Source: Candidatus Nomurabacteria bacterium RIFCSPLOWO2_01_FULL_33_17 (GTDB lineage Bacteria; Patescibacteriota; Minisyncoccia; Phycocordibacterales; UBA9973). Taken from it: a DNA stretch of 35,961 nucleotides. The notes below the pieces were generated by a model. It was not told the DNA's origin. It ran no database searches and saw nothing but the letters and a program-made list of their open reading frames with translations. The number at the start of each line of letters is the position of its first letter. The stretch's first letter is position 1. The translations under genes and the position numbers were made by a program. The stretch spans positions 1-35,961 of the forward strand of contig MFUO01000004.1 of NCBI GenBank assembly GCA_001786995.1. Direction: 5' to 3'. This document shows, one piece after another, positions 25,201 to 28,019 of the stretch.

Positions 25201-25828
25201 TACCAGAATCATTTTTTGCGGCTAACCGTACATAATATTTTTTGTATTCTTTGAGGTTTTTTACTTCCTCTTGCATACTACTCATATTATAGTTTTTGCT
25301 TTGGGTTTCTGGTTGAATGATTTTCTTTGTTGCACTCCTGAAAGAATCAGGAGTAATATCGTACTCATACCAAGTCGTGGTGATAAGTCCGTTTGCAAAA
25401 AAGTATCCGTTCACCTGAAACTGATTTGTGTCATTTGTCCAAAGTCCCCATAAATCCACACTAGGAAGTCCAGTTGGTGGTGTGTATAGATAATAGACAC
25501 TACCATAGCTTACCCCATTTGAATTTTTTGCAACCACCATATATTCGTATGATGTTTGTTCGTTGAGGTTTGTAATTGTCTGGCTTATTGTGCCAGAATT
25601 ACTTTTTGTGTAACGTTGGCTTGTGTCAACTTTACTTGACCCACTTTGCCAGTAGATAAAGTAGGATTCACAGGCCGATCCATTTGGGTTTACATACCCA
25701 TTTAAGACTGCGGAATTTCCAAATACACGAGTTGCATCGTATGTATCGACATACGGTGCTTGTGCGTAAGATGTTAGGCTACAGCTAATAATAGCGAGCC
25801 ATGTCATAATCATTTTTTTTGTTTTCAT
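22244..25828 (-). CDS. large secreted protein: ~11 tandem Fn3-like modules plus T9SS (Por) C-terminal sorting domain
   Basis: 1194-aa ORF with signal peptide MKTKKMIMTWLAIISCSLTSYAQAP. It has about 11 modules of roughly 95-100 aa, each ending L.PNTTYYYR..A.N..G...G....F.T. The C-terminus KAYPNPFLEQLTVES...INLDHLPAGVYFIQIYKGSQFIGNQKIVKQ matches the T9SS type A sorting tail pattern. Confidence 0.85.
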   Translation of the reverse strand: MKTKKMIMTWLAIISCSLTSYAQAPYVDTYDATRVFGNSAVLNGYVNPNGSACESYFIYWQSGSSKVDTSQRYTKSNSGTISQTITNLNEQTSYEYMVVAKNSNGVSYGSVYYLYTPPTGLPSVDLWGLWTNDTNQFQVNGYFFANGLITTTWYEYDITPDSFRSATKKIIQPETQSKNYNMSSMQEEVKNLKEYKKYYVRLAAKNDSGTVYSSVGTIITQSGKPPVVITDSATNLSNSTAMLNCRFDGLANCAYSYYEYGQSPKSLNKSTYDSYFQSWNCQYGMFNYSKEIYGLSPNTTYYYRAVSESNRGKSYGEILSFKTEGSYAPEVLTLQASNISYTSADLWGYYNSNGAESTEISFQHGTSIYLGLETSPVSYQKGTDTVKVSIKDIESGAKHYYRLKAKTKFGISYGSLVEFTTDFNFPPTTNTDSAIASSTTQINVFAKFDANRTDTKTWFEYDTLVNKYSMSTSKSSQGKSAGNISETLSGLLPNHTYFIRSGAENVFGIVYGKTIAVTTLNNQQPLVVTDSIDAISSTYAILAGFVDGKKSDTKFVFEWGTSSQTLTNQTPEIKTGKGSSYQLVPIYGLDQYTTYYYRIKATNEWGVTKGQVYKFRTLPNKEAVVKILKIDSITPNSAKITVVIDGRGTISDFALNYGNDLNLREQTDFFTAKKVLDTLTVLLSGLNPDSRYYLAPISRNSFGEIQGNVKELTTLNNKPPTIKLETVCATATTIVFDGYYNSNKTKTNVWVVCKDKNGFTIKTTILDDKIDSGPFSILANDLDANTWYYYQAYAQNSFGIVMTTTDSVLTLGNQKPIVKTLTPIVHDTYAILFAEVDGQGTNTNIEFVYGTDPSELYKITGKFNSGSYKKTVQGIMYGLKPNTTYFFYVSAENTWGIEKSEIMSFRTLDFTPQKEKVFLKILSIEVTADIHYAVLKASISSKDELASYWTTYGDGQKSSVEMFYDSGIRIVTIVLTNLWANSTQSCLFYLQNVNGKDSMLVEFKTKNNQTPNVKTLKITQVDDSTLLFEGKYNANGSAPIRYYFEYSTDLSFSKRSPIYFSKNDSDVVYSMVSCNYGETYYTRLVCENEIGITQGNILSLKTKEKDVTGINDVSINPDQVAIKAYPNPFLEQLTVESKEGDLVVFINIQGVVVHKTLIQNDVEQINLDHLPAGVYFIQIYKGSQFIGNQKIVKQ

Positions 25829-25992
25829 TTTTTTGTTTTTTGTTTTTTTAAGTTTTAGAAAATTTTTATTTAAAGAAATTTAATTGTTAGTTAATTCAAT
25901 AAAAAAGACGAATTTGCATCCGTTTTATAGAACTAACTAACCCCTAAAAAGCAAAAAATCTGCCTGTCAAAGAACACTGTAGATTGGTGTAT

Positions 25993-26021
25993 ATACTATC
26001 ACAAATAGCCCTATTTGTCAA
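25993..26021 (-). promoter_or_regulatory. sigma70-like promoter TTGACA-17-TAGTAT facing the Fn3-repeat gene
   Basis: The minus strand reads ttgacaaatagggctatttgtgatagtat. It overlaps the palindrome acaaatag-cc-ctatttgt (26001-26018). Confidence 0.45.
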
Positions 26022-26029
26022 TGGCTATA

Positions 26030-26057
26030 TTGCAATCCCCTTTTTATGTGATATAGT
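26030..26057 (+). promoter_or_regulatory. candidate promoter TTGCAA-16-TATAGT for the 26083 gene
   Basis: Read on the plus strand, 26 nt upstream of the ATG. Confidence 0.4.
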
Positions 26058-26082
26058 ATAAGAAACCTAAAAATCTGACGCT

Positions 26083-26610
26083 ATGAAAAACAATGACTAC
26101 TTCAACCTATTAAAAATAGGTCTAATTGTAAAAATTATTGCATTGGCACTAACTGTGATTTTATTAATCCTAGTGATAGGAAGCAAATCTGCCTTTGGGC
26201 AAACAAAACCCCAAAACAAAATCAAGAAAAAGGCTGAAAAACAAGTAGAGTTTGTTTTAAACTACGAGTTGCAGTTTGATTCAATAACAGTAGTAATCCC
26301 ATGGATCCGCCTACAAGAGAATCAAGAAATCAGCTCTCTATCTTGGATATTAAAAGAGTATTTACAAAAATCTGGTGATACCTTGTGGTTGGAAATTCCC
26401 AAAGGGTACACCCCCTTCTCAAGAGAATATCCTGATAATAAAAGCCTTATAAATACCGCAATGGTTGAAATAAGGCAAGGTTATTCTCCCGGATTTAAAA
26501 AGGAAGACGAAGAGATATTTTATATCCCGGAGTCTGAGATTATAGGGAACCGATTCCCTATTTGCACAAATACAAAAAAGGAAAGACTGTATATATACAT
26601 CTACTTATAG
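26083..26610 (+). CDS. membrane-anchored hypothetical protein
   Basis: 175-aa ORF with one N-terminal TM/signal anchor (IIALALTVILLILVIGS). No motifs recognised. It is followed by a terminator. Confidence 0.5.
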   Translation: MKNNDYFNLLKIGLIVKIIALALTVILLILVIGSKSAFGQTKPQNKIKKKAEKQVEFVLNYELQFDSITVVIPWIRLQENQEISSLSWILKEYLQKSGDTLWLEIPKGYTPFSREYPDNKSLINTAMVEIRQGYSPGFKKEDEEIFYIPESEIIGNRFPICTNTKKERLYIYIYL

Positions 26611-26634
26611 ATTGTTGGGTTCAAACCCAATAAG

Positions 26635-26660
26635 GCGTGTCTTAAAAGATGCGCTTTTTT
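26635..26660 (+). terminator. intrinsic terminator
   Basis: gcgtgtc-ttaaaa-gatgcgc (with G-U pairs) followed by tttttt. Confidence 0.55.
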
Positions 26661-26728
26661 ATTTGCAATTATGAATTTATTTAAAAACTTACCCTAAAAA
26701 ACATTTAAAATTGGGCTTATTTTAGCCC

Positions 26729-26757
26729 TTGACAAATCCATCCGAATTTGCTATACT
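26729..26757 (+). promoter_or_regulatory. near-consensus sigma70 promoter TTGACA-17-TATACT
   Basis: The -35 ttgaca is at 26729-26734 and the -10 tatact at 26752-26757, with an exact 17-nt spacer. This is the best promoter match in the window. Confidence 0.6.
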
Positions 26758-27160
26758 GTCCCCAAGATGCAACAACACCGATGAGACGGATTTGGATGCA
26801 GGAAAATTCCTGGTAAACATCCCCCGTCCGTGGCTTATGCATCAACGCCGAGATGGTCAGGTATGGGGAAAGACCCCACTTAAATGCCTAGATCGTCAAT
26901 TTAGTTCTTTTATTACATATGTAATTTAAATATAAACCAAATAGAAAGGTTTGTAAGTAAATGACATAATTGATTCTTGAGTCAGAGTTATAAGAATCAT
27001 AAATAGAAGAACGTAAGTTTTGTAAACTCCTCTTTTTATTTTTTAGGAAATGACCGCAGGCAAATGATATCGAAAGATAAACGCAACCGCCACCGGATAA
27101 TCCAAAATAAAAAGAGCATAACCACAAAAACTATAATTTACTCTGAAGTTATAGGGTTAT

Positions 27161-27184
27161 GATAAAGAAAGCCCATTAACGGGC
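27161..27184 (-). terminator. possible terminator of the SIMPL gene
   Basis: The minus strand reads gcccgttaatgggc followed by tttctttatc. Confidence 0.35.
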
Positions 27185-27190
27185 ACAGAT

Positions 27191-27225
27191 GCGGCAGCCA
27201 ATTGGTTGCCGCTTTTTTATTTTTT
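27191..27225 (+). terminator. intrinsic terminator (plus strand)
   Basis: gcggcagcc-aatt-ggttgccgc followed by ttttttatttttt. Confidence 0.7.
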
Positions 27226-27227
27226 AT

Positions 27228-28019
27228 TTACCTTATTTCGTAAGTTATCGAAACATTTGATGTATATTTATTTTCACCCATTGGAATTTCTGGAATTATA
27301 GATTTTTCCATAGCACCATCGCGCATCATAGTTGCGCCACCGTACATTGGATATATTCCCCCACCATTATTTTCTGAAAAATTTTGAATTTTTACAAGTC
27401 TTACACCAAGTTGAGCGGACAATGTTCGCGCTTTAGATTTTGCATCTCCAATTGCATCAGTGCGAGCTTTGTTTCTTGCTTCATCTTCGTTTGCTAATGT
27501 AAATTCTGGGCCTGATACATTTGTTGCACCCCATTCGGTCAATTTACCAGCAACTTCCCCTGCAAGATCAATGTCTTTAATTTTCACACTGACGGTTTGG
27601 TTAAAAGTATAACCAACAGCTACATTTTTACCATCGGGTTGTGGACATGGTGCACGAACACAATATATTGTTTGTTGTTGCCATTCGTATTTTGGATTTA
27701 GAGAAAAATTAATTGTTTTTAAATCTTTATCATCCATATCATAATCTTTCTTTAATTTAGCCAAAATATTATTCATGACTTCACTACCTGCATCTTTGGC
27801 TTGTTTTTGAGTAATGGCATCCTTCTCTACAGTAAAAGTAAACAACGCTGTATCGGGTATTGCAAAATATTCACCAGTACCATCTACGGTAATAGTTGCA
27901 ACTGGCTTGTTTTCATCATTACGATTAAAAGCACCATAAGCATTAGCTAGGAAAAATATAGACAAACAAACACTGGTAATAATGATAAGATTTGTCAAAA
28001 GCTTTTTATTTTCAAACAT
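27228..28019 (-). CDS. SIMPL-domain (DUF541) protein
   Basis: Has an N-terminal TM anchor and a typical SIMPL layout ending ...YTSNVSITYEIR. The ATG at 28019 (MFENKKLL...) is preferred. The track's GTG at 28061 lies in the GC-rich repeat. Confidence 0.75.
   Translation of the reverse strand: MFENKKLLTNLIIITSVCLSIFFLANAYGAFNRNDENKPVATITVDGTGEYFAIPDTALFTFTVEKDAITQKQAKDAGSEVMNNILAKLKKDYDMDDKDLKTINFSLNPKYEWQQQTIYCVRAPCPQPDGKNVAVGYTFNQTVSVKIKDIDLAGEVAGKLTEWGATNVSGPEFTLANEDEARNKARTDAIGDAKSKARTLSAQLGVRLVKIQNFSENNGGGIYPMYGGATMMRDGAMEKSIIPEIPMGENKYTSNVSITYEIR

Follow-up and report, generated by a model that had tools for sequence, protein, structure and literature searches.

Does the gap between the open reading frame (ORF) of 175 amino acids (aa) at 26083-26610 (plus strand) and the convergent SIMPL-domain gene at 27228-28019/28061 (minus strand) of Candidatus Nomurabacteria bacterium RIFCSPLOWO2_01_FULL_33_17 hold a gene, and if so, of which kind? 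This gap of 617 nt, which contains no ORF of 80 aa or longer, lies on contig MFUO01000004.1, whose 35,961 nt are called the window here (contig C4 of the source genome G000, which comprises 558 kb in 37 contigs and is rated 82% complete). An earlier note, made from the letters of the window, had proposed that a promoter and an intrinsic terminator enclose a structured RNA of about 460 nt that belongs to no known class. The genomes of relatives measure 0.5-1 Mb, save one contaminated bin of 1.9 Mb, as would be expected for an ultra-small bacterium of the CPR/Patescibacteria type. The median gap in the source genome is 68 nt, and the gap in question ranks seventh among its stretches free of ORFs of at least 80 aa, of which several larger ones contain ribosomal RNA (rRNA) or transfer RNA (tRNA) genes. 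We regard it as plausible, with about even confidence, that the unit, which would be restricted to this species or population, is a stand-alone accessory gene whose product is a non-coding RNA (ncRNA) of about 460 nt. This reading is favoured because a promoter of RNA-gene type, a dedicated terminator, an exceptional domain-wise fold, the lack of any sign of coding and, for so compact a genome, a large gap are found together.

Promoter, terminators and predicted fold

The promoter that the earlier note had called the best of the window (Table 1) ranked first in the 16 kb scanned, with a score of 11/12 plus the TG extension, and it carries the signature cTTGACAA...AATTTGCTATAmT. Promoter-like sites as such showed no excess in the scanned region (59 observed vs. 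68.6±9.7 in shuffles). The stricter pattern TTGAC[AT]-N14-16-TG[CT]TA[TA]A[ACT]T occurs three times in the whole 558-kb genome, i.e., at the unit, at C26:151 before an RNA adjacent to ruvB and at C8:3166 before a unit of about 75 nt, and each site is followed by a non-coding unit that ends at a terminator. At the other end, the clean plus-strand terminator described before was recovered as the second-best site of the terminator scan; on the minus strand its hairpin (27191-27212) is not followed by a U-run. The small minus-strand hairpin next to it is likely the terminator of the convergent SIMPL gene and also folds in the plus-strand RNA. The convergent terminators of the unit and of the SIMPL gene are separate. 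The predicted terminator of the 175-aa ORF is the left boundary of the unit. The genes downstream of the unit lie on the minus strand, which agrees with the earlier statement that the unit is not a leader. A riboswitch or another cis-regulatory leader was rejected because no plus-strand gene follows, the terminator ends the unit and no credible Rfam cis-regulatory family was found. At the sequence level the unit has what is generally expected of a stand-alone ncRNA gene, i.e., its own promoter, a Rho-independent terminator and no translated ORF. A target-site duplication was considered for the 13-nt direct repeat CGCTTTTTTATTT (26652-26664 and 27210-27222) and rejected, as this repeat is a common terminator tail that recurs at many terminators.

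The transcript was modelled as 462 nt (26764-27225) and compared with dinucleotide shuffles. Its predicted fold reached -141.3 kcal/mol vs. -92.3±5.6 kcal/mol for the shuffles (z -8.8), and none of the 100 shuffles was as good; the reverse complement, i.e., the minus strand, gave z -5.2. The fold is a chain of five local stem-loop domains plus the terminator hairpins, with no helix that closes the 5' end on the 3' end. Each domain folds better than its shuffles when taken separately (Table 1), the terminator region has z -5.7, and domains 4 and 5 jointly have z -5.3. All helices listed in the earlier note, including the four nested ones of domain 1 and the tgggg/cccca hairpin, are present in the minimum-energy fold. 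The note's value of about 50% G+C for the first 120 nt or so was also borne out, with 0.50-0.51 across 26750-26899 as compared to 0.22-0.25 in the middle section. The stem of domain 4 is the inverted repeat I3 and is 100% complementary. In a scan of the genome only 11 of the 2345 plus-strand windows of 462 nt had a lower GC-adjusted energy than the unit, which therefore stands 12th (top 0.5%); about eight of these 11 overlap tRNA genes, the RNase P RNA or a fragment of transfer-messenger RNA (tmRNA), and three are unexplained.

Table 1. Coordinates of the candidate unit, its flanking signals and the ruvB-adjacent RNA (positions of the window unless a contig or locus is given)
Feature	Position	Strand	Remarks
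Terminator past the 175-aa ORF	26632-26664 (hairpin 26632-26657)	+	terminator scan: 11-bp stem, then TTTATTTGCA
Terminator-like hairpin	26728-26713	-	terminator scan
Sigma-70-type promoter	26729-26757	+	-35 TTGACA 26729-26734, 17-nt spacer, extended -10 TGcTATACT (TATACT 26752-26757)
Predicted transcription start	26764-26765	+	A 7-8 nt past the -10 box; from promoter geometry only
Domain 1	26766-26843	+	78-nt irregular hairpin, four nested helices, about 50% G+C; -26.8 kcal/mol, z -3.2
Domain 2	26852-26897	+	46-nt hairpin, UGGGG/CCCCA tip, 6-nt bulge CUUAAA; -19.7 kcal/mol, z -3.8, 0/200 shuffles as good
Domain 3	26898-27019	+	A+U-rich, Y-shaped, 17-bp outer stem around two hairpins; -30.1 kcal/mol, z -5.6
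Domain 4	27030-27116	+	perfect 13-bp stem CUCUUUUUAUUUU/AAAAUAAAAAGAG (27030-27042/27104-27116) around the second G+C-richer block; z about -2.5
Domain 5	27117-27161	+	45-nt hairpin, from folding; z -1.5
45-aa TTG ORF with nested 30-aa ATG ORF from 26837	26792-26929	+	frame of the 66-aa ORF; no Pfam match; without support
32-aa ATG ORF (MISKDKRNRH...)	27064-27162	+	inside domains 4-5; sole internal ATG ORF >30 aa outside the G+C-rich 5' part; no Pfam match; without support
Small hairpin	27171-27184	-	GCCCGUUAAUGGGC plus UUUCUUUAUC; terminator scan, minus strand
Unit terminator	27191-27225	+	GCGGCAGCC-AATT-GGTTGCCGC (27191-27212), then TTTTTTATTT; 9-bp stem, 7 G-C pairs, AAUU loop, U-run
ruvB-adjacent RNA	C26:150-470 (G000); L003:1225-1545 (G003)	+; -	head-to-head with ruvB; alignments A2, A4

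According to the proposed model, the housekeeping RNA polymerase holoenzyme would start at about 26764, directed by an extended -10 promoter close to the consensus, then transcribe five consecutive and independently folding stem-loop domains and stop at the intrinsic terminator 27191-27225, and the product would be a stable, highly base-paired RNA rather than a template for protein. We infer the transcription, the exact ends and the fold of the unit from sequence and modelling, and the same holds for any function. Its most likely role would be in trans, either regulatory or in the binding of a protein, because stable hairpins that follow one another without a closing helix, behind a strong promoter of constitutive type, are most compatible with a stable trans-acting RNA. 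In a target prediction, duplex energies were calculated against 620 start regions; the best value, -50.6, was close to the -42.6 to -46.4 of shuffled sequences, and the neighbouring genes were not outstanding. This crude scan was uninformative.

Some details of the fold are given here as observations in their own right. Domain 4 holds a UAUC-GAAA-GAUA hairpin (27067-27078) with a tetraloop of GNRA type, and in domain 2 (26860-26888) a UAUGG 5' strand faces the CC...CUUAAA bulge, which by eye is loosely like a GAAA tetraloop receptor. Elsewhere in the genome, low GC-adjusted energies were also found at C3:14323-14785, C2:10396-10857, C16:3928-4389 and C29:4390-4851. As far as they were checked, these four windows overlap neither tRNA genes nor Rfam matches, and they are possible further unannotated structured regions.

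Distribution of the unit and the relic explanation

The points that weigh against an ncRNA gene come from the search for relatives and from the nature of the predicted pairs. The homology searches are samples of the public data, and a negative result applies to the collections searched. Apart from the promoter, the matches that BLAST gave in 60 relatives and in 400 genomes of the order were short and due to chance; the best of them falls in a guanylate kinase gene. Two covariance models, R1 for the 5' 137 nt and R3 for domains 4-5 (the E-values of both are rough), recovered only the query from 140 relatives, 150 genomes of the phylum and nine congeners; for the syntenic loci and those at ruvB the filters were switched off, with the same outcome. 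Exact 18- to 23-mers found nothing or chance matches in coding genes in the GTDB species genomes, the JGI metagenome contigs and IMG/VR, and phage and plasmid libraries gave nothing relevant. None of the nine congeners has the unit at the syntenic site, where either secE-nusG or unrelated inserts come right after the SIMPL gene. As no relatives were found and the population copies are identical, there are no substitutions from which covariation or selection could be read. Finally, 129 of the 139 predicted pairs are Watson-Crick and 10 are G-U, so palindromes at the DNA level could yield much of the fold signal.

Eight other assemblies (from ENA, Logan and one metagenome-assembled genome (MAG) of NCBI) carry the 175-aa ORF, and six of them span the whole unit and both flanks with zero differences. 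Since both junctions recur in several independent assemblies, the unit is not an assembly artefact. The identical copies show that the sequence is real and not that it is selected, because the flanks are also 99.3-100% identical. Two assemblies break within the unit, one in the promoter (the NCBI MAG contig, which stops at 26749) and one at the end of domain 2 (an ENA contig, which stops at 26896); the breaks could reflect strain heterogeneity or a problem of coverage or assembly at hairpins.

The earlier note had named a lack of conservation or covariation in relatives as an argument against its own proposal. Indeed no relative turned up, though this argument has less force than it seems to have, as the nearest sequenced relatives are only about 63% identical in the SIMPL protein. 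A route to syntenic relatives through that protein gave nothing in the JGI metagenome contigs, and in a set of 5.8 billion proteins no match exceeded 63% identity; because the nearest SIMPL relatives are that distant, there is no sister species in which a moderately diverged copy could be sought. The proposed structured RNA of no known class is partly supported, by the promoter, the terminator and the fold and by the lack of Rfam, ARAGORN and Pfam matches.

The unit lies in a variable accessory segment that extends from secE to the SIMPL gene. Because congeners have secE beside the SIMPL gene or carry other inserts, the unit belongs to a species-specific block, which measures about 8 kb (roughly 19.5-27.2 kb). 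The different inserts of other congeners mark the secE-SIMPL site as a variable hotspot. The insertion (19500-27227) contains genes for a 497-aa fusion protein, a HExxH protein and a 1194-aa giant protein with Fn3 and Por-tail domains, the 175-aa ORF and the RNA unit.

This setting leads to the alternative of a neutral relic, which is possible though rather unlikely. The unit would be the leftover of a recent insertion or rearrangement in this hotspot, in which a strong promoter copy happens to lie before the SIMPL-side terminator; the RNA, if made, would be functionless, and its foldability would come from A+T-rich palindromic DNA, e.g., decayed hairpin mini-elements like those that this genome has. 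Such an origin is consistent with the absence of the unit from the nine congeners and all other genomes searched, with its place in the species-specific block, and with the 175-aa ORF, which has no significant match in 200 genomes of the family. In genome G006 an ORF that by eye is weakly similar to the 175-aa ORF is followed at once by a similar terminator with an AATT loop. The mostly Watson-Crick pairs, the good fold of the minus strand (z -5.2) and the inverted-repeat cassettes that are docked at start codons in the same window point in the same direction. On the other hand, the unit is single copy with no similarity elsewhere in its own genome, and therefore no recognisable repeat element. 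Its promoter is among the three best of the genome and has the full signature of a stable-RNA promoter, the two terminators are separate and correctly oriented, all five domains fold better than shuffles, and 617 nt of junk would be unusual because CPR (candidate phyla radiation) genomes are compact. A miniature inverted-repeat transposable element, another repeat or the template of a diversity-generating retroelement was rejected, as the unit was found once in its own genome by BLAST, blastn-short and nhmmer and has no terminal inverted repeats that span it; a replication origin was rejected because the region contains no DnaA boxes.

We therefore keep to a stand-alone ncRNA gene as the preferred reading. 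A further step is doubtful, namely that with the unit a new class of structured RNAs has come to light, large (about 460 nt), built of several domains and carried in accessory DNA of CPR bacteria. Such RNAs would use the stable-RNA promoter type of the 6S-like RNA and have a dedicated protein partner or a regulatory role (e.g., on the neighbouring species-specific surface-protein genes), and relatives would be missing only because no sister species has been sequenced. If the unit is real, it would be one of very few candidate regulatory or structural RNAs for these ultra-small uncultivated bacteria, whose RNA biology is, to our knowledge, almost unknown. It would also mean that accessory hotspots are places where even genomes as compact as these gain or newly form RNA genes of a single species. 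The weight of an orphan from a single genome is modest; of wider value are the promoter signature, the inventory of housekeeping RNAs and the SRP result described below.

Among the large structured bacterial ncRNAs of Rfam, OLE, GOLLD, ROOL, HEARO and raiA are defined by wide conservation, covariation, multi-helix junctions and pseudoknots. The unit is similar to them in that it exceeds 400 nt and is strongly structured and non-coding, and in that some of them also occur in mobile or accessory DNA; it differs in having no match to them at E<=10, no relatives and a predicted fold that is a simple string of hairpins.

Coding potential, termination and known RNA classes

The ORFs within the unit are the 66-aa ORF that starts on the TTG of the -35 box, an antisense ORF of 79 aa and several of 45 aa or less. 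The first two had been dismissed in the earlier note, and indeed the unit holds no credible ORF. It is nevertheless conceivable that the transcript is an mRNA in which long, structured untranslated regions flank the frame of at least one very small protein, the candidates being the 32-aa ORF and the 30/45-aa ORF of Table 1. We consider this explanation improbable. A missing ribosome-binding site is no counter-argument, because most genes of the genome lack a Shine-Dalgarno sequence and many are seemingly leaderless. Moreover, the 13-bp stem of domain 4 pairs the U-rich tract upstream of the start codon at 27064 with the coding part of the same ORF, a layout that is known from translationally repressed small ORFs. 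However, Pfam found nothing credible in the three ORFs listed, nor in six frames read through stops, and the gene callers of eight public assemblies predicted no gene in the gap. The 45-aa frame matched just four 'proteins' among 1.84 billion representative proteins, all of them translated tandem-repeat DNA with many weak stretches each and none a real homologue. The start codons are also buried in predicted helices, and the peptides, as read from their sequences, have no signal, transmembrane or cysteine pattern.

A decayed protein gene was rejected, as the six-frame Pfam search was empty. A guanylate kinase pseudogene was suggested by a BLAST match of 42 nt and 83% with an exact 19-mer in gmk of genome G335 ('DAGKFL' in the 66-aa frame) and was rejected because the match does not extend; tblastn of the G335 Gmk protein against the region gave the same stretch alone (E 0.08), and in a search space of this size about one exact 19-mer would be expected. 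A relic of a phage terminase was likewise rejected, since the IMG/VR 18-mer matches lie in coding genes ('GQVWGK'), nothing further aligns, and their number is close to chance by a rough estimate of the collection size. A match to UDP-glucose dehydrogenase in GTDB genomes was due to chance.

RNAIII of Staphylococcus aureus, a large regulatory RNA of 514 nt and 14 hairpins with its own promoter and terminator, also encodes a 26-aa peptide and is a dual-function RNA, which the small-protein mRNA considered above would resemble. By a comparison from general knowledge, the unit is like RNAIII in its size class, its chain of local stem-loops with no 5'-3' closing helix, its restriction to one lineage and a possible tiny ORF. 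It is unlike RNAIII in that no sequence or Rfam similarity exists and that no regulator, quorum-sensing locus or target complementarity was identified.

It is very improbable that the unit is a passive 3' end or insulator between convergent genes, in which the promoter match arose by chance and the hairpins do no more than terminate and stabilise the two transcripts that meet there, from the 175-aa ORF and from the SIMPL gene. Terminator-like hairpins do occur on both strands at both ends (26632-26657 plus, 26728-26713 minus, 27184-27171 minus and 27191-27212 plus), and promoter-like sites are no commoner than in shuffles. In congeners, however, the same convergent junction is served by one hairpin of about 25-40 nt, the promoter is not marginal and its full extended signature occurs at just three sites of the genome, and about 430 nt of extra structured sequence would not be needed for termination.

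As to known classes, Rfam 15 gave no match at gathering score in the window, its matches at E<=10 in 26550-27350 were noise, and ARAGORN found nothing in the window, in line with the failure of the earlier note to match the unit by eye to tmRNA, RNase P RNA, the RNA of the signal recognition particle (SRP), 6S RNA or a riboswitch. The idea that the unit is a divergent universal RNA (tmRNA, SRP RNA, RNase P RNA or 6S RNA; the note had named ssrA, rnpB and ffs) that the databases fail to recognise arose as a first whole-genome scan lacked tmRNA, SRP RNA and 6S RNA and as 460 nt is close to the size of tmRNA and RNase P RNA, but it has next to no probability left and is refuted by the genome's own rnpB and tmRNA part, by the lack of SRP RNA and of Ffh and FtsY (four different queries) in the genus, by a separate conserved 6S-like RNA beside ruvB in 10/10 genus genomes, and by the absence of the unit from congeners, in which an essential RNA would be present.

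A tmRNA (RF00023) is marked by a tRNA-like domain built from the 5' and 3' ends (acceptor stem and T-arm), a tag reading frame and pseudoknots; the unit was rejected as such because ARAGORN and Rfam (E<=10) gave no match and the genome's own tmRNA 3' part lies on C19. Nor is it RNase P RNA (RF00010/RF00011), whose conserved catalytic core (P4 etc.) a covariance model would see, as there is no match at E<=10 and the genome's rnpB lies on C3. SRP RNA (RF00169/RF01854) is marked by helix 8 with its symmetric and asymmetric loops, a GNRA tetraloop that binds the Ffh M domain and an Ffh partner in the genome; no match to it was found in the unit, and no Ffh was found in the genus. 6S RNA, of about 180 nt (150-200 nt), forms a single rod whose large central bubble imitates an open promoter. 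The unit resembles it in having a strong promoter of housekeeping type and in being non-coding and highly base-paired; it is, however, 2.5 times longer, its 462 nt are divided into five separate domains, it has no match to RF00013, and the 6S-like niche of the genus is held by the ruvB-adjacent RNA.

Housekeeping RNAs, the SRP pathway and the ruvB-adjacent RNA

A by-product of this analysis is that the inventory of housekeeping RNAs of the genome is settled. The RNase P RNA gene lies at C3:10375-10670 (102 bits), and the 16S and 23S rRNA genes are on C3 and C9. The 3' part of tmRNA was found at C19:1-208 on the plus strand (model positions 155-374, i.e., the 3' 220; 53 bits); the whole-genome scans had missed it because the end of the contig cuts the gene. 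A canonical tmRNA of about 390 nt is present in seven of the ten genus genomes. At C3:15464-15536 (minus strand), about 230 nt past the 3' end of the 16S rRNA, a borderline match to group II intron D1-D4 was observed, with 35 bits exactly at the cut-off.

Neither the small nor the large SRP RNA (RF00169, RF01854) was detected in any of the ten genus genomes. The Ffh M domain (PF02978), the SRP54 GTPase domain (PF00448), TIGR00959 and a homologue of E. coli Ffh were not found in five genus genomes, two of which are rated 100% complete (the genomes named for the SRP scans are G000, G001, G003, G004, G007 and G008, plus 150 genomes of the order). With PF00448 FtsY would be found as well, but this domain gave only P-loop fragments of about 20 bits across the 150 order genomes, whereas the controls matched in 14/14 reference genomes. 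The SRP pathway (RNA, Ffh and FtsY) is thus undetectable in the genus and, by the GTPase domain, also in the 150 order genomes, and because Ffh is undetectable in the genus, no SRP RNA is expected. If real, this would mean a whole order of CPR bacteria without Ffh, FtsY and 4.5S RNA; in the literature we found no paper on SRP loss in Patescibacteria or on ncRNAs of CPR bacteria.

The promoter is the sole meaningful similarity of the unit to other genomes, with 85% over 40 nt to a site in G003 that drives an unrelated, highly structured RNA beside ruvB. The promoters of the ruvB-adjacent RNAs of G003 and G009 agree with that of the unit at 33-35 of 45 positions, and the agreement extends to CAAGA, the predicted first bases of the transcript. 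This uncatalogued, 6S-like RNA is laid out as a promoter cTTGACAA-N9-AATTTGCTATAAT, a hairpin, a terminator-like hairpin and a core of about 150 nt, which is closed by a stem of 26 bp and in which the motifs CUCUAAGCAA / GGAC / UGG / AUCC are invariant. The RNA and its conserved promoter are present in all ten genus genomes, including this one, and a model of the 150-nt core found the RNA in 49 of 150 order genomes, with a single plus-strand match in all but one. It matches no Rfam family, and compensatory changes were observed at 26 of its 41 predicted pairs (28 sequences).

The two RNAs are alike in the promoter cTTGACAA-N9-AATTTGCTATAmT and in being stand-alone, non-coding and ended by a U-run. 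On the other hand, the ruvB-adjacent RNA is about 150-175 nt long and widespread, whereas the unit has about 460 nt, occurs in its own genome alone and has an unrelated body. A paralogous origin of the unit was rejected, since covariance models gave no match in either direction. Judged from the sequences, what the unit has in common with the 6S-like RNA of the lineage is the promoter type and not the body, and perhaps also regulation and high expression. As a further by-product, the signature cTTGACAA-N9-AATTTGCTATAmT appears to mark ncRNA genes in this lineage.

Several observations concern other promoters and gene starts. Most genes of the window lack a Shine-Dalgarno sequence, and several have a TATAAT-like box that ends 6-7 nt 5' of the ATG (e.g., 5676, 9944, 4195 and 5020); such boxes near start codons suggest widespread leaderless mRNAs. 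The window also contains inverted-repeat cassettes docked at start codons, and the upstream cassette end 'tatataagtgaaaagtttaggNgg' is common to four genes (starts 14701, 15506, 17955 and 28864). The third promoter of the class described above, TTGACA-17-TGCTATACT (C8:3166-3270, plus strand, locus L098), precedes a short unit (about 75 nt) with the terminator AAAACCCCCGCAAGGGGGUUUU at its end, just upstream of tpiA-pgk, and this unit could be a small RNA or a transcription attenuator.

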